NCBI GenBank assembly: GCA_016182875.1
Contig: JACPFQ010000004.1
Span: forward strand, 259,515 to 323,514
Length of the DNA stretch: 64,000 nucleotides
From: Candidatus Doudnabacteria bacterium
GTDB taxonomy: Bacteria; Patescibacteriota; Doudnabacteria; UBA920; O2-02-FULL-48-8
Direction of reading: 5' to 3'
The notes under the pieces are model-generated. The model was not told the DNA's origin. It saw nothing but the letters and a program-made list of their open reading frames with translations, and searched no databases. A program made the translations under genes and the position numbers. Each line of letters starts with the position of its first letter. Position 1 is the stretch's first letter. Below are positions 4,232 through 29,591 of this stretch, in pieces.

Positions 4232-4675
4232 ATGAAATGCCCTAATTGTGCCCATGACGACAGCAAGGTTTTGGACTCGCGTCCGATTAATGACGGGCTG
4301 GCCATAAGAAGAAGGCGCGAGTGTATTAAATGCGCCTTTCGGTTTTCGACCCATGAGGAAATGGAAATTCTGGATTTAACGGTAGTCAAGCGCGACGGGC
4401 GCAAGGAGCCTTACATGCGGGAAAAGATTGAGTCCGGCATCAGGAAAGCTTTCGAAAAAAGGCCGCTTAACCGCGACGACTTCCACGCCTTAATGTCGGC
4501 GATTGAGCAAGACATTCAAAAATTGGGCCGAGACGAGATTAGTTCCCGCGAAATCGGAAGCATTGTCATGCGGCGCATCAAATCCCGCGACCAGGTTGCT
4601 TACATCAGGTTTGCCTCGGTTTATCGCCAGTTCGCCGATGTGGACGAGTTTGTGAGAGAAGCAAAAAAGTTATAA
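4232..4675 (+). CDS. nrdR: Transcriptional repressor NrdR
   Basis: MKCP.C...DSKVLDSR...IRRRREC..C..RFST zinc ribbon, ATP cone, AYIRFASVY. Confidence 0.98.
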   Translation: MKCPNCAHDDSKVLDSRPINDGLAIRRRRECIKCAFRFSTHEEMEILDLTVVKRDGRKEPYMREKIESGIRKAFEKRPLNRDDFHALMSAIEQDIQKLGRDEISSREIGSIVMRRIKSRDQVAYIRFASVYRQFADVDEFVREAKKL

Positions 4676-4757
4676 TAATTCGAAACTACGAACCGGGATC
4701 CGAATAATACGAACCCGTTCGTAGATTCGCATAAACGTTCGTAATTTCGCATTATAT
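4676..4757. repeat. ACGAA/TTCGT palindromic element, copy 1 (copy 2 at 21077-21158)
   Basis: Imperfect ~80-nt hairpin directly after the stop codon, closely similar to the element after groES. Confidence 0.8.
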
Positions 4758-4787
4758 TTAAAAAAAGAATTAACTAAAGAAACCAAT

Positions 4788-7391
4788 ATGCAGTACTACG
4801 AAGTCATCCAAAAGCATCAGTTATTAACCGCGGAAGAAGAACAACGGGTCAACGACAGCTTTTCCCAGAATGCGCTTAAGATGATGAAGAAGCGGTACCT
4901 GCTCCGCGACGAGAAGGGCACGATTTTGGAAGATCCCGCGCAAATGCTGCATCGCATCGCGCATTCTTTGGCTGACGTCGAGCGGCAGTACGGCAAAAAC
5001 CAGTTTGAAATCGAGCAAATCGAACGCGACTTTTTCTATATTATCGCCAACAAGGAATTTACCCCAGCCGGCCGGACCATCACCAACGCCGGCGCTCCTT
5101 CGGCTGTGGTTGCCAACTGCATCGTGCTACCCATCAAAGATTCGATGGAAAGCATTTTCCAAACCCTCAAGGACGCCGCCCAGCTGCAGAAAGCCGGCTC
5201 AGGCCTTGGCTTTTCGTTTACCCATCTCCGCCCCGCAGGCTCAATCGTCAAAAAATCCCAAGGCATGGCTTCTGGCCCGGTTTCATTTCTGCAGGTTTAC
5301 AATCAGGCGTTCGGAGTGATTAAACAGCAGGGCCGGCATGGGGCCAACATGGCCATTCTCCGGGTGGATCATCCTGATATTTTGGACTTCATTCACAGCA
5401 AGAAAATCGAAGGCCACATCCGCAACTTCAACATTTCAGTAGGGATTACCGATGAATTTATGGAGGCGGTAATCAATAAACCCAACGAGCCCTGGGTCTG
5501 CAAATTTGACGGAGAACCCATGAAGCCGCGCCGGATTGAGCGGGATGAGCATGGCTTAATCAAGAAAATCGAAGAGCTCGACATTTCCGCCGTCCAGTTG
5601 ATGGATGAGATTGTGTATGGCGCCTGGCGGAACGGCGAGCCGGGCGTGGTCTTCCTCGATGTCGTCAACAAAACCAATGTCTTGCCGGAGCTGGGCGAAA
5701 TTGACGCCTGCAACCCCTGCGGCGAGCAGTTCCTGCATCATTATGATGTTTGCAACTTAGGCTCCATTAATTTGGCCGTCTTGGTCAAAAACGGCCAGGT
5801 CGACTTTGAGCGGCTGCGGTTTGTGACCCGGACCGCGACCAGGTTTTTGGACAATGTCGTGGATGTTTCCAACTTCCCGGTCAAAAGCGTGGATGAGATG
5901 GCCAAAAATTCCAGGCGAATCGGCTTGGGCGTCATGGGCTTTGCCGACATGCTTTATCAACTGCGCGTGCGCTACGATTCGGCCGAAGGATACAAGGCGG
6001 CGGAAGACGTCATGCGCTGCATTCAGGAAGAGGCGCACCGGACTTCACAGGCCTTGGCCGAAGAAAAAGGCGTGTTCCCGCTTTACAATCTTTCAATCTA
6101 CAAAAAACTGGGCATTCCCATGCGCAACACAATGTTGACGACAGTAGCACCCACCGGCTCGATTTCCATGTTCTTCGACACTTCCTCCGGATGCGAGCCC
6201 AACTTCGCTTTGGCCTACACTAAGCAGGACAAAGACCGCATGCAGTATCTCTATGTCAACCAATATTTGGAAAAGGAACTCAAGGAGCGAGGCTTGTACA
6301 CTAAGGAGTTGATGGACCAAATAATTCATGAAGGCTCGCTTGCCAATATTGAGCTTCCGGAGGATCTCAAAGAGACTTTCCGCGTCTCCATGGACATTTC
6401 CGCCGAGTCTCACATCCGGGTCCAGGCGGCATTCCAGAAATGGGTGGACAATTCCATTTCCAAGACGATTAATTTTCCTTACAGCGCCACGGAAACAGAT
6501 GTCCGCCAAGGCTACATTCTAGCCTGGCAGCTTGGGTGCAAAGGTTGCACGGTTTACCGCGACGGCTCCAGAGAATTGCAGGTTTTGAATATCAACAAAA
6601 ATTTGACTGCGGACGGCAAAACCAAAATCGCAGAGAGTGCCTCCCGACGCGACTTTCAGTCGGTCGGGACCCCGACTTCCGAAGGAACGTCGGGGCAAAC
6701 TGTTCCCCAGCCAAATCCAAATCCAACCCCTATGCCCCAGCCCCAACCCCAACCCATGCCGCCGCCGGCAACTCCCAAGATGTCTGCCTCGCCGGCAGGC
6801 GGGACAATCTCGCCGCGCAAGCGGCCGGATGTCATGCACGGCGCCACGTATAAAGTCTCCACCGCCTATGGCAATCTCTATGTCACAGTCAACGAAGACG
6901 AGTTTGGCCCGTTTGAAGTGTTTTCCCAGCTCGGCAAGGCCGGCGGATTTTTCGGGGCCCAAACCGAAGCGCTATGCCGGCTGATTTCCCTAAGCCTGCG
7001 AAGCGGCATTTCGATTCAGGAAGTCGTAGACCAGCTGAAAGGGATTAGAGGGCCGGATCCCGTTTTCCATAACGGCGAGCGGATTCTTTCTTTGCCGGAC
7101 GCCATTGCCTCGGTGCTGGAAGGCCACACTAAGCGAGGCCAGCAGGAGCTGACGTTCGAACTGCCTAAAGCGGCGCCAAAAGTTGAACAGAAAGCAGAGC
7201 AGGAACTGGTTTACGAAACCGTCACGAAAGAAGTGCAACCCAGCGGTATCCTTGGAACAACAGTAGTCACGCAAAAATTTTCCATCGCTAACTTAGGCCA
7301 CGCGCCAGCTTGTCCTGATTGTTCCAACATGCTGGTCATGAAAGAAGGTTGCATGTCCTGCGAAGCGTGCGGGTTTTCGAAATGTGGTTAG
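4788..7391 (+). CDS. nrdJ: Adenosylcobalamin-dependent ribonucleotide reductase (class II) with Pro-rich linker, TSCPD-like domain and Zn ribbon
   Basis: ANC, NPCGEQ, CNLGSINL, APTGSIS, KGCTVYRDGSR. C-terminal LISLSLRSG...QLKGI...SLPDAIA and CPDC...C..CG.SKC. Confidence 0.95.
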   Translation: MQYYEVIQKHQLLTAEEEQRVNDSFSQNALKMMKKRYLLRDEKGTILEDPAQMLHRIAHSLADVERQYGKNQFEIEQIERDFFYIIANKEFTPAGRTITNAGAPSAVVANCIVLPIKDSMESIFQTLKDAAQLQKAGSGLGFSFTHLRPAGSIVKKSQGMASGPVSFLQVYNQAFGVIKQQGRHGANMAILRVDHPDILDFIHSKKIEGHIRNFNISVGITDEFMEAVINKPNEPWVCKFDGEPMKPRRIERDEHGLIKKIEELDISAVQLMDEIVYGAWRNGEPGVVFLDVVNKTNVLPELGEIDACNPCGEQFLHHYDVCNLGSINLAVLVKNGQVDFERLRFVTRTATRFLDNVVDVSNFPVKSVDEMAKNSRRIGLGVMGFADMLYQLRVRYDSAEGYKAAEDVMRCIQEEAHRTSQALAEEKGVFPLYNLSIYKKLGIPMRNTMLTTVAPTGSISMFFDTSSGCEPNFALAYTKQDKDRMQYLYVNQYLEKELKERGLYTKELMDQIIHEGSLANIELPEDLKETFRVSMDISAESHIRVQAAFQKWVDNSISKTINFPYSATETDVRQGYILAWQLGCKGCTVYRDGSRELQVLNINKNLTADGKTKIAESASRRDFQSVGTPTSEGTSGQTVPQPNPNPTPMPQPQPQPMPPPATPKMSASPAGGTISPRKRPDVMHGATYKVSTAYGNLYVTVNEDEFGPFEVFSQLGKAGGFFGAQTEALCRLISLSLRSGISIQEVVDQLKGIRGPDPVFHNGERILSLPDAIASVLEGHTKRGQQELTFELPKAAPKVEQKAEQELVYETVTKEVQPSGILGTTVVTQKFSIANLGHAPACPDCSNMLVMKEGCMSCEACGFSKCG

Positions 7392-21076: not shown

Positions 21077-22822
<1,746 letters not shown>

Positions 22823-22860: not shown

Positions 22861-23277
22861 ATGGCAGAACTCTTACATAAAGAGTTATCATATATAGTGC
22901 ATGGTGCGGCTATTGAAGTTCGAAAAGATTTTGGGCCAGGACACAAAGAAAAACTATATCAAACAGCATTTGCGCAGGAACTCGACCGCCGAAGTATAAA
23001 TTTCAAACAAGAGCCAGCAGTAAATATCTATTCACCTAAGGATGGACAAAAAGTCGGGTTATATTGACCCGACTTTGTTGTTGACGGTAAAATACTTGTC
23101 GAAATGAAGGCTGAAAAATTCGTTAATCGTGATGAGATCAAAAGAATCTATGATTATTTGCGAAACAGTAAATATGAATTAGCCTATTTTATAAACTTCG
23201 CTTCACCTAAGCTCTACGTCAGACGCATCATCTTTACTAATGATAGAAAGCTTTCAATGCCCAGTAAGTTCGTGTAA
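22861..23277 (+). pseudogene. GxxExxY protein with an internal nonsense codon
   Basis: GPGHKEKLY motif. In-frame TGA at 23065-23067 (GLY*PDFVV, where Arg is expected). The frame continues ILVEMKA...YLR...INF to TAA at 23277. Confidence 0.9.
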
Positions 23278-23345
23278 ATTCGTCTATTATTAGTGTTAAT
23301 TAGTGGTTTATTTGGCTAAGTTAAGCCTTTTTTGAGGCCAAAGTC

Positions 23346-23374
23346 TTGACAGCGCCGGCAAAAAGGTATATACT
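23346..23374 (+). promoter_or_regulatory. Strong sigma70 promoter at the head of the cassette-like array
   Basis: TTGACA-17 nt-TATACT. Confidence 0.75.
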
Positions 23375-23480
23375 TTTGAGTTCTTTTTAAAATCGCATAT
23401 TATGCCAATTTCGTAACAGGACCGAAGTTTGGCGTTAAAAATTATACAAAAACAGCTCCTGTATTACGAGCTGTTTTTGT

Positions 23481-23603
23481 TTCCACTATTCTGGGTACTA
23501 ACTTGATTTAGCCCGCCCGAACGTACCGTTCGGTACGGGCGGGCAGGGAAATCATTTTATTGCCCTCTTAAGCAATCAAGCCTAAGTACCCAGAATTGTG
23601 GAA
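23481..23603. repeat. Array repeat R1 (with a 32-nt palindromic insert)
   Basis: TTCCACTATTCTGGGTACT...AGTACCCAGAATTGTGGAA. Confidence 0.95.
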
Positions 23604-23656
23604 GTAACAGCAAGTTCTTTTGTTTTAGCGCTTTAAATGCGCAGCGGGAGTGTGAG

Positions 23657-24013
23657 ATGAAGAATATGCGATGTATTGCGTTGTACTTCGCCTTGGTCGC
23701 CTCGCTTGGTTTCAATGTCTACTACATGTTCAAAATGTCGGCGGGCCGCGTCGGCCAGGTCATGACAAGGGTCGGCAACATCCCGAACAACGAAGTGCAG
23801 TTCGAGCTCTTCGAAGTCAGCGCTGTCGGTCAGTCGAAGATGCTCTATGGCTGTTTGGAACTCCGCGCGGTGGAGAAGACCATGGCCTACCTCGGGACCA
23901 CGTATAGCGCGGACTATACGTACTTCACCGAACAGGGGTGGGTCACCATGCTGGTCGATCCGGTTCCGGTGACGTTCGCCGGCCTTCGATACATCAACCA
24001 GCGTATCGAGTAG
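23657..24013 (+). CDS. Cassette-like orphan protein with an N-terminal TM helix or signal peptide
   Basis: 118 aa, GC-rich, GGGAG RBS, follows R1. Confidence 0.7.
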   Translation: MKNMRCIALYFALVASLGFNVYYMFKMSAGRVGQVMTRVGNIPNNEVQFELFEVSAVGQSKMLYGCLELRAVEKTMAYLGTTYSADYTYFTEQGWVTMLVDPVPVTFAGLRYINQRIE

Positions 24014-24250
24014 TGCCAACAACCGGCGGCGCCGGAAACTGAGGGTAAGTAGGAGGAAGTTCCCAACCGCTTGGCGGCGGTCACAAATCATTTCGGATTA
24101 CTTCATTCTAAGTAATCCACCCAGAAGTGCGCCAACACTTCTCCTGTCCTGTGAGCTAGTACTCTAATACTGCGCCGTATTAGAGTGAAGCTTAGAGGAT
24201 AGGACATTAACAAACTTCTAATTTCTAATTACTAATTTCTAAAATTTTGT

Positions 24251-24336
24251 TTCCACGATTCTGGGCGTTAGTTAGAACTAAGGATGAATTCAGTAATACT
24301 GCCTTGAAAGTTAAATTGATACCCAGAATCGTGGAA
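24251..24336. repeat. Array repeat R2
   Basis: Perfect 15-bp inverted repeat TTCCACGATTCTGGG...CCCAGAATCGTGGAA with a different interior. Confidence 0.93.
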
Positions 24337-24379
24337 GTGAAAGATTGTCAGCACCTGACAAGGTGCAAAGTGAGGCAAC

Positions 24380-24613
24380 ATGAAGGGATTAAGCGCTCTC
24401 CTCGGAATCGCGATGATACTTCTGGCTCTCCGGGTTAGCTCTGTTGTTGAAGCCAACCCTGATCCATATAGGGAGATTCTCCCCGGGGTGATTGCGGTCG
24501 CCTCGATCGTCTGTCTCGTAATGGCCGCCGCCGGCCTGCTGCTGTACGCGATCTCGCCGCCGAGTAATCGGGACAACCTGCCGCGGCAGACGTCCTGTCG
24601 GTGGCACAAGTAA
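24380..24613 (+). CDS. Cassette-like small 2-TM protein
   Basis: 77 aa, two hydrophobic segments, GAGG RBS, follows R2. Confidence 0.65.
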   Translation: MKGLSALLGIAMILLALRVSSVVEANPDPYREILPGVIAVASIVCLVMAAAGLLLYAISPPSNRDNLPRQTSCRWHK

Positions 24614-24740
24614 GGCCAACGACGGCACTATGAATGGAGGACACAGAATGCATTAAGTAACTCGCGAACCATCGCGAATTGAATAGTGGGGCCAGAGCAA
24701 GCCAAACCTCTGTCCCCACATCCCGTTTCCAATATTTTGT

Positions 24741-24831
24741 TTCCACTATTCTGGGTACTAACTTGATTTAGCAGGGAAATCATTTTATTGCCCTCTTAAG
24801 CAATCAAGCCTAAGCACCCAGAATTGTGGAA
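24741..24831. repeat. Array repeat R3
   Basis: Nearly identical to R1 minus the insert. Confidence 0.95.
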
Positions 24832-24843
24832 TTGAAAGGGAGG

Positions 24844-25101
24844 ATGGACATGACGCGTGCGCAGCGCAAGAGATACGAAAGGAAGATGCAGAAGAAGGCC
24901 GAACGGGGCCTGATTGCGCCGACTCTCGTGATCGTCGGCGGGCTGGCCTTGGCGCAGGTCGGTTACTCGTTGATCTCTGAGCCGTTCAGGATCATCGAGT
25001 TCATCGGCCTCGGCATCGTCGCTCTCGCCGGAGCCGATTGGTTGAGAGTATTCGTGTACATGTATCGCAACCGGCCGACCTACGAGGATCGGCTGCTCTA
25101 G
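24844..25101 (+). CDS. Cassette-like small 2-TM protein
   Basis: GGGAGG RBS; basic N-terminus (TRAQRKRYERK) then two TM segments. Confidence 0.7.
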   Translation: MDMTRAQRKRYERKMQKKAERGLIAPTLVIVGGLALAQVGYSLISEPFRIIEFIGLGIVALAGADWLRVFVYMYRNRPTYEDRLL

Positions 25102-25109
25102 GAGGGCAG

Positions 25110-25460
25110 ATGAAGCTCAGAACCATCGGTTGGGTGCTCGCGTTTGTCGCCGCGGCCATTGTCGGCGCGATCGGCGACAACATGTACATGCAGGCGCGGC
25201 TTGAAGCCCAGCTCGGCTCATGCCCCGCCACGGTCCAGGTCCTGCAAGACGCCCTCGACAACTCGGCTGTGCTGAAAGAACAGCTGACCGAGTGGTTCGT
25301 GGCCACCGACGAACAAACCAAGCCGCTTCGGCTGACCTCCTTCACTGTCAGCCAAAAGGGCGAGGAGAAGCGCTGGGTCGGAGCCGCGGTCGAGAAGGAC
25401 CTGCTGCTCTCGCCGATCGGCAGAATCGTCGGCCGTGTCGTCGGCGAAGCCGGTCCCTAG
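25110..25460 (+). CDS. Cassette-like protein with an N-terminal TM helix
   Basis: GGAGG RBS overlaps the upstream stop; MKLRTIGWVLAFV... Confidence 0.7.
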   Translation: MKLRTIGWVLAFVAAAIVGAIGDNMYMQARLEAQLGSCPATVQVLQDALDNSAVLKEQLTEWFVATDEQTKPLRLTSFTVSQKGEEKRWVGAAVEKDLLLSPIGRIVGRVVGEAGP

Positions 25461-25640
25461 CGTTCCGTGAGGCGCGATGAGTGAGAGGTCTATTCGACTC
25501 TCCTCATCCGCTCTCTTCCTAAATTTTCGAGATTCGAAGATTTTGGAAGGGAGCAATCCCGAAACGGATTTAAATACTTTAATACATTATCGTATTAAAG
25601 TGAATAGGTTAATAGTTAACAGCCACGAGCCAAGCTCGTG

Positions 25641-25728
25641 TCCGCCATTCTGGGTACTAACTTGATTTAGCAGGGAAATCAAATTATGCCCTCAAAGCAA
25701 TCAAGCCATTGCACCCAGAGTCGTGGAA
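25641..25728. repeat. Array repeat R4
   Basis: TCCGCCATTCTGGGTACTAACTTGATTTAGCAGGG...CACCCAGAGTCGTGGAA-GTAACAGCAAG. Confidence 0.9.
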
Positions 25729-25792
25729 GTAACAGCAAGATCTTTGATAAAAAAAGTCGCCTTGGTTAGGCGACGGCTAGTATAGAATATAG

Positions 25793-26031
25793 TTAGTAAG
25801 GCAGAACAATTCCGAGTTTGTCGGCCACTTTTTTGGCCCAAGCTTCCAGGACTTCCAGGCGTTTGCGCATGATGATATGCTCTTCCTGGAAAGTTTTGAC
25901 GATTTTAGTAAGCCCGTCAGGTTTGTTAAGAGAATGTCAATCTTTGAATCAGTATGCGCTAAATCCTCTTTAGTGACAAAGACTTCTTTCTCAGCTTCGA
26001 TTAAATTTTTGATGTCCTGGGGAGTAAGCAT
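25793..26031 (-). pseudogene. Small AT-rich coiled-coil protein with an apparent 1-nt frameshift
   Basis: MLTPQDIKNLIEAEKEVFVTKEDL... continues in another frame as ...LTKIVKTFQEEHIIMRKRLEVLEAWAKKVADKLGIVLPY*. Confidence 0.55.
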
Positions 26032-26206
26032 TTATGCTGTTAATTAATATTAAAATTTGATCTATATGTTTTTGAACCTTAGTAATATCCGCTTCCAGCT
26101 TGTCGAACTTCTCGTCCAAGTATCCCAATAATGGTTTAAAATTAATCTCAGCCATAATAGTGCATTTATTCTAGTCCTTTGAAAATTTCCAGTCAATATA
26201 TTTTGT

Positions 26207-26250
26207 TTCTACGGTTCTGGGCGTTAGAATTAGCACCCAGAATTGTGGAG
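26207..26250. repeat. Array repeat R5 (minimal form)
   Basis: TTCTACGGTTCTGGGCG-TTAGAATTAG-CACCCAGAATTGTGGAG, preceded by TTTTGT. Confidence 0.85.
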
Positions 26251-26285
26251 GCAAACAAGCTTCTACTAATATGCAGGAGGACTGC

Positions 26286-26669
26286 ATGACGATAAACCAT
26301 GAGTTTAAGGTCGGCGATCGTGTCAGGTTTTCTCGAGCCGGAATTGGCGACTCGATTGACCTTTCTGAGGAAAGAGTCGCTCAACTGAGACAGAAAATCG
26401 CTCAGTTGAAAGATCAGGCAGTCGAGAAAGAACTGGCTGTAGACCAGCAGATTGAACTGGAAGCGAGCATGGATGAATTGGATTACATCCTCTTGCTCAG
26501 TTCAAACTCAATCTACTGCGTAGTCGAAAAGAGAACGCAGTGTACGATTTTCGAGAACACCAGCGGTGTCTCGAAAGAAGTTTTGGCCCAGGACATCAAG
26601 CTTGAAGATGTTTTTGTGCCAAATCTCTACGACGAGCTTTTCCCGGTTGACTGGTTCGAACTCGCTTAA
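26286..26669 (+). CDS. Cassette-like orphan protein (FKVGDRV SH3/KOW-like start plus coiled coil)
   Basis: GGAGG RBS, follows R5. Confidence 0.7.
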   Translation: MTINHEFKVGDRVRFSRAGIGDSIDLSEERVAQLRQKIAQLKDQAVEKELAVDQQIELEASMDELDYILLLSSNSIYCVVEKRTQCTIFENTSGVSKEVLAQDIKLEDVFVPNLYDELFPVDWFELA

Positions 26670-26797
26670 GTAGTCCTGTTCGGAAATCTCTCAAGGTTGG
26701 TTGGGTTAGAAGCAAGCCCCGTGTGGTGTAGCCGTCGTGCAATTACCAAGAAGTGCAGTTAGGTCCAAGGTGTAAGTTGATTAATTTCTCTTCCACC

Positions 26798-26853
26798 TTT
26801 CTATTTCCCTTCAATGGGACTGATGAGTCCGTGAAATCCGGACGAAATAGAAA
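26798..26853 (+). ncRNA. Type III hammerhead ribozyme
   Basis: TTTCTAT-T-TCCC ttcaat GGGA-CTGATGA-GTCCG tgaaatc CGGAC-GAA-ATAGAAA. The full core and three stems are present, and the loops are complementary (TTCA/TGAA). Predicted cleavage after AUU at 26805. Confidence 0.88.
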
Positions 26854-26928
26854 TTGTTTCCACGATTCTGAATACTTAATGTTGTAATACAGGAACTAAA
26901 TAGTTAACAGTCACGAGCTAAGCTCGTG

Positions 26929-27074
26929 TCCACCATTCTGGGCACTTATCTTGGTTTAGTCCCGACGCTACGGTTCCGACGCAAGGTCGGAACAGGTCGG
27001 GACAGGCAGGGAATCATATATAAATGCCCTCGAGCCTTAAGCAATCAATGCTCTAAGTACCCAGAATTGTGGAA
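26929..27074. repeat. Array repeat R6 (with insert; an extra left half-site lies at 26858-26870)
   Basis: TCCACCATTCTGGGCACTT...AAGTACCCAGAATTGTGGAA-GTAACAGCAAGTTCTTTTG. Confidence 0.92.
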
Positions 27075-27121
27075 GTAACAGCAAGTTCTTTTGAGCGCGA
27101 AATGTGCGCGTGAGGTGTGAC

Positions 27122-27439
27122 ATGCAGATTCAGGATTTTATCTTGATCGCCCTCGGGATTGCGGCGTTCCTCTCCATCACGTTGAGGGTCGCGCGAGCTC
27201 TCTGGACTCTCGGGTCCAGCGCGCGCGGTCTGCTCGGACTACTCGGGCTGGTCGTCGGTGGGTTCGTTCTTATCTGGCTCGTGACTCTCATGCCGGAATC
27301 GGTAATTCCGGTTCAGGGCAAGCGTCTCTTACAGATCGCCGGTATCCTCATGATGCTTGGCGGACTGTATCAAACAATGCAGATGAGGTTCCGGGAAGCG
27401 CATCTGCCGCCAGGTTCCAAGGAGGATGCGGCGCGGTAA
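27122..27439 (+). CDS. Cassette-like 3-TM protein
   Basis: GAGGTG RBS, three hydrophobic segments, follows R6. Confidence 0.72.
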   Translation: MQIQDFILIALGIAAFLSITLRVARALWTLGSSARGLLGLLGLVVGGFVLIWLVTLMPESVIPVQGKRLLQIAGILMMLGGLYQTMQMRFREAHLPPGSKEDAAR

Positions 27440-27660
27440 CGCGTCGTAAAAGTGCAAAGGTGGCGAGATGGTTCATACCCACGATGGGTCACTGACCGTT
27501 TTGCCTTCCTTCCCTTGGACTGCACTTATAATACTTTAACGTATTGAAGTGGAGTCCAGAGGATCGGAAGTTAAATCAGTAATAAGAAACTAGTAATAAG
27601 TAATTAGGACAAAAGATTCTAATTACTATATACTTTTTACTAATTACTAATCACTTTTGT

Positions 27661-27750
27661 TTCTAGAATGCGAGTGTAGTTGGCTTAAGTTAAGAGAGAA
27701 CATCATTTTTCAGTCTCAGAACTAACAAGCTAAATACATTCCATTGTGGA
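27661..27750. repeat. Array repeat R7 (diverged, structure conserved)
   Basis: TTTTGT-TTCTAGAATGCGAGTGTA...TACATTCCATTGTGGA; nearly the same length as R3, with an ATCATTTT loop. Confidence 0.65.
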
Positions 27751-27775
27751 CGCGAATTGAGGTGATGAGGTGACT

Positions 27776-27976
27776 ATGAAGAACCCATTGTTCAAACCCG
27801 GAGATCGGTGCACGTTCACCAACCGCAGCGGGAATAGCGCACGCAGCGGTGAAAAATGCACGGTGGTCACTGTGGTTCCGCCGGATGAGCATGATGGCGG
27901 TGTCGCCTACATCGTCGAGTTCGAAAACGGCCACAGGATATCAGTTCATGAAGAAGAGCTCATGCAGACGCATTGA
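27776..27976 (+). CDS. Cassette-like small SH3/KOW-like protein
   Basis: LFKPGDRC...GEKCTVV...YIVEFENG...VHEEEL; GAGGTG RBS. Confidence 0.7.
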   Translation: MKNPLFKPGDRCTFTNRSGNSARSGEKCTVVTVVPPDEHDGGVAYIVEFENGHRISVHEEELMQTH

Positions 27977-27984
27977 GGACTAAC

Positions 27985-28104
27985 ATGCATATCGAGATTG
28001 ATTCGTCCTGGAAGTTCCGGTTGCTCCTCGGTGGTTTGCTCCTGGCGATTTACTTCCTCTGGGAGTACGTCGCAAGCCAGCCGCACCACCTCGTCATCAA
28101 GTAG
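27985..28104 (+). CDS. 39-aa single-TM peptide
   Basis: GAGGA RBS; MHIEIDSSWKFRLLLGGLLLAIYFLWEYVASQPHHLVIK. Confidence 0.55.
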   Translation: MHIEIDSSWKFRLLLGGLLLAIYFLWEYVASQPHHLVIK

Positions 28105-28289
28105 GAGGATTCCTTCCAGCCAGGAAAGCAAGATTTTCCAATCAGCTCACCTTCACCTGGCTTATCCAGCAGGATTGACTCAAGATTAATCCTGCTCCTG
28201 CCCTTGCGCTTAAAACTATATTGAGCTTGAGGGCGGGTCAGTGGTATAATATAGTGTTAAAGCACTTTTATATAATAAAGTCTTTGAGA

Positions 28290-28329
28290 CTTTGGATACT
28301 TAGTTGGTTAAGCGGCCAGAATCGTGGAG
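28290..28329. repeat. Array repeat R8 (right half-site only)
   Basis: CCAGAATCGTGGAG at 28316-28329 just before a GGAGG RBS; the left half is degenerate. Confidence 0.6.
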
Positions 28330-28350
28330 GCTTAACCAAAGGAGGTTGCG

Positions 28351-28614
28351 ATGCCTGAGATCATCGGCTCAGCCGAAGCTGCCAGTTTGACCACCATAGG
28401 CGCGCTGCTTTTCATCCGCTTTGTGTTCGTTGGCCTCTGCCATGTCGAAGACAAAGCCCGCTCCTTCAGCCGACGGGTCTACGGACAGGAAGAAGCGTCC
28501 GAAATCCCGGCAAGCGTCACTGCTCCCGCCGGAAAGATCGTTTCTTTCCCTGCCATCGCCGCGCCCGCACCAATCTCGCGAGAGCGAGAAAAGCAGCCCC
28601 CAATTGCTGCGTAG
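28351..28614 (+). CDS. Cassette-like single-TM protein
   Basis: AAGGAGG RBS, 87 aa. Confidence 0.68.
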   Translation: MPEIIGSAEAASLTTIGALLFIRFVFVGLCHVEDKARSFSRRVYGQEEASEIPASVTAPAGKIVSFPAIAAPAPISREREKQPPIAA

Positions 28615-28743
28615 GCGCTACCAAGAAGGTGGTTCGCTTCTCTAGAGCCACCTTCCCCTCCTTATGTGTTTGACCAAAAGGTCGAATGCATAAGGAGGGA
28701 TATATTTCCGCCCTCGTGTCGTTAACCTCTTAGAGAGGAGAGT

Positions 28744-28938
28744 ATGCAGAAGAAGGCTACCGTCGGCGTGGAATCGTCCGTCGCAAGGCCTGTCGTTCGC
28801 ATCCGTTATTGGTGGGACCCGTGGTCGTTGCTTCCCCCAATGTCTGAAAAGACACACAGGCGGGTATGCAACACCCTCATGGTAATCGCCGCGGCCATTT
28901 TGTTAACATGGGTCGTCGGCGGATTCCTCTTCGAGTAA
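28744..28938 (+). CDS. Small protein with a C-terminal TM helix
   Basis: GAGGAG RBS, 64 aa. Confidence 0.6.
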   Translation: MQKKATVGVESSVARPVVRIRYWWDPWSLLPPMSEKTHRRVCNTLMVIAAAILLTWVVGGFLFE

Positions 28939-29012
28939 TCCCTTCCCCGGGCGCTTCCCAGCGCGCCCAAGTACTTATACAAAAACCAACTTTATTAGCA
29001 AGGGGGGCTCCA

Positions 29013-29204
29013 ATGGAGCACGAAGCGCCTGACCTCTTGGTCGTCTTGAGGGTCTGCGCACCGATCGGCGTCGCCTTCGGCATTTATGGCATCATCAGCA
29101 ACTTGCCAATGATGCGAGAAGTGGCGACGATCTGTTTGCTCATATCGCTTGCGGTGTGGGCAGGGCCAATCGTGCGACGCATCAAGCGGAGGGGGGTGGG
29201 CTAG
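29013..29204 (+). CDS. Small 2-TM protein
   Basis: AGGGGGG RBS; MEHEAPDLLVVL... Confidence 0.6.
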   Translation: MEHEAPDLLVVLRVCAPIGVAFGIYGIISNLPMMREVATICLLISLAVWAGPIVRRIKRRGVG

Positions 29205-29393
29205 TACGGCCATTCCTCCTCCGGAAGTTTTCTTTAGATATCTGCCGGCGAATCTGACAAATTTTCTTTGAAGATTTATCAGATCTCCTGTTCGCCGGCA
29301 GATACTTGAAGAAAACCAAGCGCCTTTGACGAGGCGCTCTTTTTATGCTAAAGTTTTCAGGCAACTATCAACTATTAACTATAACCTAATTCG

Positions 29394-29591
29394 ATGGCTG
29401 TACCAAAAAAGCATAAAACTAGATCGGGCCGCAATCAACGGCGGGCTCATGACTTTTTGATTAAGACCAACTTGGCAGTTTGCAGCAACTGCAAATACCC
29501 CGTGATGCCGCATGAGGTTTGCCAGAACTGCGGATACTACAAAGGACGGCAGGTTTTGAGGATCAAGGCAAAAACTAAGGCATCGAAATAA
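29394..29591 (+). CDS. rpmF: 50S ribosomal protein L32
   Basis: MAVPKK....R..RR.H, CxxC...H.VC.NCGYYKG. Confidence 0.97.
   Translation: MAVPKKHKTRSGRNQRRAHDFLIKTNLAVCSNCKYPVMPHEVCQNCGYYKGRQVLRIKAKTKASK

Follow-up and report, generated by a model that had tools for sequence, protein, structure and literature searches.

RNase III processing hairpins lie between the early genes of phage T7, and bacterial polycistronic mRNAs carry intercistronic hairpins that stabilize them. Synthetic 5′ untranslated region (5′ UTR) insulators of the RiboJ type consist of a ribozyme plus a hairpin, and repetitive extragenic palindromes (REPs) can stabilize the mRNA upstream of them. Here we describe a repeated hairpin, denoted R, in a 64-kb stretch of DNA (the window) from contig C9 of a Candidatus Doudnabacteria genome (G000; 788,893 bases in 14 contigs, 47.8% GC, 94% complete). 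At one vertically inherited locus, R is conserved and covaries as a hairpin of the transcribed strand, and the groEL–rpmF interval that holds it is a conserved operon frame with variable content. We propose that R is a cis-acting mRNA element for intercistronic processing and/or 5′ stabilization, that a second hairpin family, S, protects 3′ ends and that a hammerhead would cut one junction. This specific proposal has, in our judgement, an even chance of being right; an RNA-level role of some kind for R is very probable.

Like the T7 RNase III hairpins, the R copies are repeated, related hairpins of about two helical turns that lie between small cistrons of a single transcription unit, shortly before a ribosome-binding site, in a host with its own RNase III. 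Unlike them, R is chromosomal and family-wide, has four interior subtypes and conserved unpaired nucleotides, and is known here from sequence. The locus also resembles an integron array in its head promoter, its co-oriented small open reading frames (ORFs) without relatives (orphans), the imperfect palindromes between these ORFs and their strong turnover; as in attC sites, the hairpins have conserved outer boxes and a variable centre. However, it has neither IntI nor RYYYAAC/GTTRRRY ends, R lies in the 5′ UTR and not at the 3′ end of a cassette, many ORFs have no R, R and its tail are kept before different ORFs, the wobble pairs point to a fold of the transcribed strand, and the locus is vertically inherited at a fixed site across the family. 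A first-pass annotation of the window had proposed an integron-like gene-capture system with, as its second option, an RNA-processing or stabilizing leader array; it is the second option that fits the evidence better. Searches of the literature on hammerheads in the candidate phyla radiation (CPR), ribozymes with gene cassettes, RNA in Doudnabacteria and integrons in Patescibacteria returned no description of R among their search results.

A covarying hairpin at one locus

The word TTCCACnATTCTGGG and its complement occur in 14 copies at 23481–28329. When up to two mismatches are allowed on both strands, TTCCACNATTCTGGG has 15 matches in the window, 14 of them at 23481–28329, against 0.49 expected from shuffles (standard deviation 0.75; 15 reached in none of 100). 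With at most one mismatch there are 11 matches in the 789-kb genome, ten of which fall inside the array. The arms pair at 23481/23589, 24251/24322, 24741/24817, 25640/25714, 26207/26236 and 26928/27060. Of the R copies, six are full hairpins, one has diverged, one is truncated and one is left as a remnant; the truncated left part (26854–26905, arm at 26858) had been missed in the first reading of the sequence. The helix has about 21–24 pairs including its foot extension, and folding energies compared with shuffles give z scores of −4.3 to −9.1 for all ten strands folded (seven sense copies and antisense R2 and R3, window and relatives).

A covariance model (CM) built from 13 type A copies (see below) detects R in 20 of the 25 family genomes, including 17 of the 17 that are near-complete (≥ 90%); the five family genomes with no match are 62–82% complete. 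All hits of any one genome lie on a single contig, within a few kb and downstream of groEL, so that this check, which had been suggested from the window alone, places R always at one locus. Across the order, the model counts 19 of 24 genomes in family f1, 3 of 70 in f3 (weak matches, E about 1e-5) and none among the 26 genomes of four further families, which leaves R all but absent from these five sister families. The hairpin pattern has no match in viral contigs. In metagenome contigs it marks 12 stretches, four identical to the G013 locus and one 99.85% identical to that of G007; among these 12, closely related strains of differing content were not found. The bare 15-mer, which is too short a pattern for such collections, gave single chance matches only in genome contigs and the viral collection. 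Because each genome has one locus and viral contigs none, R is a family-specific element bound to one chromosomal site, neither dispersed nor phage-borne.

Pairing was scored on an alignment of all 93 CM matches (55 places, many matched on both strands). The outer helix aligns without gaps; 87.7% of cells pair, versus 76.3% after shuffling and 36–45% when the partner is slid. Changes on both sides occur in 27 of 32 pairs, and the covariation score of 0.365 (shuffled 0.196) was reached in none of 500 shuffles. Copies in G002, a member of another genus, carry three or four consecutive compensatory arm changes (ACATTGGG/CCCAATGT). The concerted variation of the outer stem noted in the first-pass annotation is thus borne out for the outer helix, but not for the position denoted n, which is pairable in 31, mismatched in 21 and unscorable in 3 of the 55 copies.

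The helix is also strand-specific. In the 14 loci with known groEL orientation, 41 of 41 copies score best on the groEL strand, which is the ORF strand. On that strand the 13 core pairs comprise 448 Watson–Crick, 53 G-U, 5 A-C and 15 other combinations, and the five-pair foot (UUUUGUU with AGCAA) 134 Watson–Crick, 42 G-U and 4 A-C. For a double-stranded DNA site, or a hairpin of the other strand, A-C and G-U would be expected equally often; selection therefore acts on the helix of the transcribed strand, and folding in RNA would be the simplest reading of the bias.

These data bear directly on whether R might be selfish DNA, a miniature inverted-repeat element of MITE or REP-like kind, multiplied locally and without function. 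Its 15-nt inverted termini and variable interior would suit such an element, another small palindrome has inserted into R1, and the genome has one Y1 (HUH) transposase gene. Yet R is never dispersed (one locus per genome in 20 genomes), it has kept position and orientation since before the genera split, it shows no target duplications (the flanks, TTTTGT and GTAAC, differ), and the Y1 gene is flanked by its own, different palindrome. The compensatory changes, moreover, imply selection for pairing in R. The selfish-element reading is already close to refuted. The likeness to REPs, bacterial interspersed mosaic elements and MITEs lies in imperfect palindromes within intergenic parts of operons; R differs in being undispersed, in lying 5′ of genes, in lacking target duplication and in having no cognate transposase, of the REP-associated (RAYT) or any other kind.

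Within the common outer helix we distinguish four interior kinds, A–D (all copies are on the plus strand). Type A comprises R1 (23475–23609, CM 70 bits), R3 (24735–24837, 98.2 bits; fold −34.7 kcal/mol, z −5.1), R4 (25634–25734, 83.4 bits, with no ORF after it) and R6 (26922–27080, 50.3 bits, with a 56-nt insert), as well as the head copy of nearly all relatives. Type B is represented by R2 (24245–24342, 50.2 bits, 90% identical to the G008 copy) and, as its short form, the hairpin R5 (26201–26256, 42.2 bits; −32.5 kcal/mol, z −9.1). Type C, in which the arms end in CTGAA, is complete in G021, G007, G009, G016 and G002 and truncated in the window, where an arm TTCCACGATTCTGAA is followed by the small hairpin CACGAGCTAAGCTCGTG (26854–26927). 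R7 (27655–27757, 27.1 bits) is type D, and R8 (28308–28329) is a right-arm remnant at 28315 within a new small hairpin.

R7 had been described as keeping its fold with a changed sequence, which is correct, and as decayed, which is not. Because it is 82% identical to the G021 copy, and because relative to G012 the interior is kept while the arms have altered in a compensatory way, R7 is a separate conserved subtype. The decay of copies with distance from the head promoter thus finds no support. The variable apex of the original description corresponds to interiors that do differ, with two corrections: they fall into the four subtypes, and the apex of R1 is a 31-nt GC-rich palindrome (23512–23543) that is multi-copy in the metagenome. 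In four groundwater DNA runs of one study that contain the DNA of the window, contigs of this palindrome have a depth of 240–2340 against 15–115 for the flanks (5- to 30-fold higher) and many unrelated neighbours. The raised depth and the many different neighbours identify it as an independent small repeat inserted at this site; it is a widespread small palindromic repeat.

Small genes, turnover and recombination

In the window, seven of eight R copies end 19–54 nt 5′ of a start codon led by a Shine–Dalgarno (SD) site, confirming the placement first noted; over window and relatives together, 32 of 52 copies end 11–54 nt 5′ of an SD-led ORF. Where a relative has a single R, that copy stands at the operon head.

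The island of small ORFs is bordered by groEL (21176–22822) and rpmF (29394–29591), with nusB just downstream. Directly after groEL lies a broken PDDEXK_3 gene (22861–23277). The order groES–groEL–[island]–rpmF–nusB is kept in most relatives fetched: groEL was found in 11 of the first 14 relatives' loci, and rpmF follows 3.4–6.3 kb further on in the seven loci that span both genes. The array holds 11 co-oriented ORFs of 39–127 amino acids (aa), each with an SD site; none reaches a Pfam cut-off and none matches PHROGs. Their GC content is 0.55–0.64 in ten cases and 0.47 in O5, in line with the GC-richer orphans first described. GC at third codon positions (GC3) is at least 0.70 in 8 of the 11, against a mean of 0.557 (standard deviation 0.088, 95th percentile 0.686) for 477 long ORFs of the genome, and the eleven follow the order GC3 > GC1 > GC2, as in real genes.

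All eleven lie on the plus strand. O1 (23657–24013; 118 aa, GC3 0.80) is an orphan with an N-terminal transmembrane (TM) segment, and O2 (24380–24613; 77 aa, 2 TM) is also an orphan. O3 and O4 share 24850–25460 with 8 nt between them; O3 has 83 aa and 2 TM, and O4 (116 aa) has an N-terminal TM segment plus a helical part. The ESM Atlas cluster closest to O4 is a phage DUF2570-type family (0.89, 178 shared features), which serves as a lead only, and for O1 and O4 no family could be assigned from that atlas. Together with the close coupling of O3 and O4, it gives a faint hint of a phage-lysis-like pair. O5 (26286–26669; 127 aa) is soluble, O6 (27122–27439; 105 aa) is an orphan with 3 TM, and O7 and O8 (27776–28104) have 66 aa and 39 aa, the latter with 1 TM. 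O9, O10 and O11 (28351–29204) have 87, 64 and 63 aa, and O10 and O11 have no preceding R.

On the minus strand, an AT-richer unit (25756–26196) contains two overlapping ORFs (54 and 84 aa) between its own promoter (26196–26168) and terminator (25774–25756). A homologue of the unit occurs in G013, and relative to the 79-aa ORF there the reading frame is broken: the two minus-strand ORFs (25777–26155) together match that one ORF, and the frame shifts midway. They probably represent a frameshifted small coiled-coil gene within the array. Promoter-like sites inside the array are AGGACA-17-TATACT (27606–27634, 9 of 12 consensus positions) and TTGAGC-18-TATAAT with a TG (28221–28250, 10 of 12), and the array is closed 5′ of rpmF by a long inverted repeat with a terminator (29227–29338), all three on the plus strand; the closing repeat is kept in G021, G008 and G013. 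The PDDEXK_3 (GxxExxY) gene 3′ of groEL falls into two separate ORFs (68 and 57 aa).

Gene content turns over almost completely, as had been proposed. A tblastn search (E 0.01) of O1–O11 against the first 14 relatives' loci gave no match. Of 171 SD-led island ORFs in 21 loci, 145 are singletons and 26 belong to ten shared families, which differ in order between loci (F7–F4 versus F4–F7, for example) and often have no R nearby; members of F4 have unrelated flanks. Long runs of ORFs lack R, such as the 16 that follow one R in G006. Among the array ORFs only O5 recurs, in G002 (39% identity). A word-limited search of O1 and O5 against 5.8 billion proteins returned only themselves, and a profile of O5 and its G002 relative, run with HMMER against 1.84 billion representatives, only those two proteins. 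Public genomes number one per species, a resolution below that of exact gain and loss breakpoints, and the within-genus pairs and trios (G014/G022/G024; G004/G020) are too diverged to reveal them.

Such turnover raises the question of whether R is a DNA recombination site, folded as single-stranded DNA (ssDNA), at which a recombinase encoded elsewhere, Xer-like or other, shuffles ORF cassettes. ORF content that differs almost wholly between genera, the varying order of F4 and F7, and the atypical GC3 of the ORFs would be expected of cassettes. So would truncated or half copies (26858, 28315) and the block of R5, O5 and hammerhead that recurs in G002 among other neighbours, its homology starting at the 5′ foot of R. 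The enzyme itself is harder to place. Phage_integrase (PF00589) and Resolvase have no hits in the 94%-complete assembly; since a tyrosine recombinase is encoded in 23 of the 25 family genomes, an assembly gap probably explains why none is seen here. However, this enzyme, the only tyrosine recombinase of the relatives, is also present in the five incomplete genomes without R, and the G021 protein scores 135.8 bits on the integron-integrase model TIGR02249 (cut-off 265) and higher on the XerC, XerD and XerA models, which makes it Xer-like. The lack of attC ends had been seen correctly: RYYYAAC/GTTRRRY, at 40–130 nt spacing, has no match on either strand of 23301–29400.

The arrangement of the genes argues in the same direction. 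Many ORFs, shared ones included, lack R, F4 flanks are unrelated, and R with its tail is kept before different ORFs and thus behaves like part of a scaffold, not of a cassette. The excess of G-U over A-C (53 versus 5) on the transcribed strand and the absence of matches in viral contigs also count against a recombination site. Contigs of the four DNA runs contained no joints that skip a cassette, a weak negative as contigs break at repeats; the two joints of low depth (24807>27050 and 26957>27050) seem to stem from related R copies of other organisms. We regard a recombination site as very unlikely, and gene capture at the repeat, as first put forward, is not upheld given R's place in 5′ UTRs, the ORFs without R, the wobble bias and the lack of an integron integrase.

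Other genes of mobile elements lie elsewhere in the genome. The IS200-like Y1 transposase gene (214 aa; L278, G000:C7:23397-26630) is bracketed by a perfect 17–18-nt palindrome, TGCAAAGGTGCCCTTTG. A reverse transcriptase (RT) gene (358 aa; L279, G000:C9:239223-242924), 42 kb from the array, has as neighbours a gene for a 106-aa four-helix bundle (Avd-like) and a likely target gene, an ORF of 143 aa whose C-terminus is rich in Cys and Trp, and the locus looks like a diversity-generating retroelement. A retron-like reading of R, considered for the UAGC after its 5′ arm and the presence of an RT, was dropped in view of that distance and those surroundings.

Leader, S hairpins and hammerhead

The array begins with a sigma-70-type promoter, TTGACA-17-TATACT (23346–23374, plus strand), that matches 11 of 12 consensus positions; the layout first reported, a head promoter followed by small orphan ORFs with hairpins between them, is real. 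Of the 21 island loci scanned, that of the window among them, 14 have such a promoter 5′ of an R copy; in the head alignment the figure is 8 of 11. Between promoter and R1 is a leader (23404–23478, plus strand) with a hairpin whose loop is CAGGAC (23417–23422), followed by a terminator-like hairpin (23453–23473) and a T-run. TCCTGT at 23457–23462 is able to pair with this loop. As a 5-mer, the reverse complement of the xAGGAx loop recurs within the 5′ terminator arm of 12 of 14 heads, and as a 6-mer within that of 8 of 14 (shuffles, 2.07 and 0.30 heads respectively), and the sixth loop base covaries (CAGGAC/GTCCTG, CAGGAG/CTCCTG, CAGGAA/TTCCTG). The leader is kept between promoter and R in L012, L014, L016, L019, L021, L298, L299 and others. 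Since TCCTGT in the terminator arm can pair with the hairpin loop, the leader seems to be an attenuator; it looks like a candidate for an undescribed antiterminator/terminator switch, of attenuator or riboswitch-like kind. A leader peptide running through terminator and R1 is open in the window and G021 and has no start in G016 and G008, and was dropped as an explanation.

The S hairpins occupy 3′ UTRs on the plus strand. Members of the family combine a 5′ arm rich in pyrimidines (CCUUCC) with a purine-rich 3′ arm, CAGAGGAUCGGAA, and an apex that covaries, and they are found in loci L013, L012, L015 and L014. S1 (24140–24212; −37.7 kcal/mol) has the S core and lies in a 3′ UTR, as does a module denoted T (24047–24153) that is 76–94% identical to pieces in G007 and G010. 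S2 (25567–25617) is preceded by a hairpin with a pyrimidine and a purine arm (25513–25552). S3 (27503–27569), a conserved 3′ UTR hairpin, also occurs in G013 and G007; over 67 nt it shares 91% identity with the G012 copy, although the groEL DNA of the pair is only ∼ 73% identical. When the O6–O7 spacer is compared with its G012 counterpart, S and R stand out as conserved islands; between genera the two are 80–91% identical, whereas the spacers and both flanking ORFs are unrelated. S shares the position of the hammerhead (see below) and folds as a simple rod, and we do not claim it as a new ribozyme. Rfam 15 has no match for R, S or leader apart from a plant miRNA precursor, the only model that R hits at E ≤ 1 (both strands, 30 bits versus 88) and which we take as chance hairpin similarity. 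The G002 island likewise has no Rfam match for R, S or leader. In that genome a stretch of ∼ 370 nt without ORFs (L287, ∼ 4640–5000) lies between island head and first R; with GNRA-like loops and many helices, it seems to be a large structured RNA and has no Rfam match at E ≤ 1.

A type III hammerhead motif lies at 26798–26853 on the plus strand (RF00008, E 1.3e-5), its 38 bits being below the Rfam gathering threshold of 48.5. It has the full core (CUGAUGA...GAAA), three stems with a 7-bp stem III and AUU at the cleavage site, and it borders on the truncated type C copy, thus standing directly 5′ of a copy of R. In G002, the O5 homologue is followed by a hammerhead orthologue, 93% identical (33.4 bits). 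The block shared by the two genomes opens precisely with the 5′ foot of the short form of R (TTGTTTCTAC) and stops at the last base of the hammerhead; after it come, in both, ∼ 70 unrelated nt, a type A copy of the same sub-kind and then unrelated ORFs.

The junction at 26798–26853 resembles a RiboJ-type insulator in its order of parts: a hairpin copy comes immediately after the hammerhead motif, and an SD-led ORF after that. It differs in that the ribozyme is a predicted one that scores below the gathering threshold of its family and occurs at one array junction only. A search at E 0.001 detects hammerheads in 5 of 61 genomes from the order and in none of 14 controls. G057, a relative from the order, has two of type III (L286, C6: 4920–4974 and 5671–5725), 750 nt apart, each with a small hairpin before it and an SD-led ORF directly after. 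Taken together, the hammerheads of the order, this pair included, suggest that intercistronic RNA cleavage is in use in the group.

The 3′ tails of some R copies recall the nut sites of phage λ and rrn leaders, where BoxB is followed by BoxA and Nus factors bring about processive antitermination. A U-rich, BoxA-like word, identified against what we take to be the BoxA consensus, stands 11–12 nt past the hairpin (GUUCUUUUGA after R1 and R6, AUCUUUGA after R4); tails in G003 and G002 are similar, the rRNA leader of the genome carries AUUUCUUUGAUCC ∼ 265 nt before 16S, and nusB is close by, just downstream of the array. However, only three of eight window copies and a minority of the relatives' copies have the tail, R is far longer than BoxB, and the word is a short one that recurs often (the genome has 18 copies of GTTCTTT[TC]G). 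The Rho RNA-binding domain was not found in the 94%-complete genome, which takes away the usual reason for antitermination. We give R as an antitermination site a very slim chance.

Processing, binding or a scaffold

The RNA-level proposal can be stated as follows. A long transcript would be cut at R, or R would shield the 5′ end of the downstream message. RNase III could make the cut within the helix, a different endonuclease could do so in the AU-rich spacer immediately 5′ of R, or the hammerhead could provide it; after cleavage the R hairpin would stabilize the new 5′ end and the S hairpin would guard the 3′ end of the upstream message. The outcome would be a stable, translatable RNA for each small gene. 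A helix of at least ∼ 20 bp in the spacer and an RNase III gene in the genome, the two features sought in a processing hairpin of the RNase III type, are both present (Ribonucleas_3_3 hit, 139 bits, C9:43694).

Several observations weigh against this proposal. We infer both co-transcription and cleavage at R, and with three candidate internal promoters not every R need be intercistronic. R4 has no ORF downstream on the plus strand, its place being taken by the minus-strand unit with its own promoter and terminator. Both strands fold, R3 better as antisense (−42.5 versus −34.7 kcal/mol); the pair counts come from an alignment fitted to a model of sense-strand copies, which favours the structure; and because ssDNA folds tolerate G-T, the strand bias does not speak strictly against a DNA hairpin of the same strand. 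An RNA role does not account for the near-total turnover of the ORFs. Finally, the unpaired nucleotides of type A are strongly conserved; a hairpin that serves merely for cleavage or stability has no need of them, and they hint at a specific binding partner.

This last point leads to the main rival at the RNA level, in which R is the RNA operator of a trans-acting protein or small ligand that co-regulates translation or decay of the R-led cistrons as a small regulon. The type A nucleotides concerned (GCAGGGAAAUCA, UUGCCCUC, AGCAAUCA) hardly vary between genera, the foot UUUUGUU on the 5′ side is conserved, as is a 3′ U at a mid-helix position, and the head copy is present in 17 of 17 near-complete genomes. 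However, the interiors of types B, C and D differ despite the common helix, leaving no single conserved pocket, and the SD site lies outside the structure, 11–54 nt downstream. No candidate partner gene was found, nor any Rfam match. We consider an operator unlikely, and an element for processing or 5′ stabilization remains the reading we favour.

A broader, speculative view of the interval is that it forms a counterpart of the integron that works without a recombinase, namely an expression scaffold, passed on vertically, whose parts are conserved RNA modules. The promoter with its attenuator, the R leaders, the S trailers and the hammerhead would delimit slots for small, unrelated ORFs of foreign composition, and the ORFs would be swapped by recombination within the conserved UTR modules. 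New membrane or phage-like proteins could thus be tried out with transcription, processing and translation signals ready-made. We hold this view as doubtful.

If R acts as proposed, the non-coding RNA framework of an operon would be kept far more strictly than its proteins. The locus would add new structured-RNA families with good covariation, R, S and the leader amounting to at least three motif families without an Rfam match, in addition to the hammerhead. It would also offer a natural case of standardized 5′ UTR insulation, including a ribozyme-plus-hairpin junction. The analysis itself removes the tempting but unsupported claim of a new integron-like recombination system. If the proposal holds, then for the organisms themselves, ultra-small bacteria whose biology depends on cell-surface interactions, the groEL–rpmF interval would be a defined hotspot for the gain and loss of orphan small proteins.

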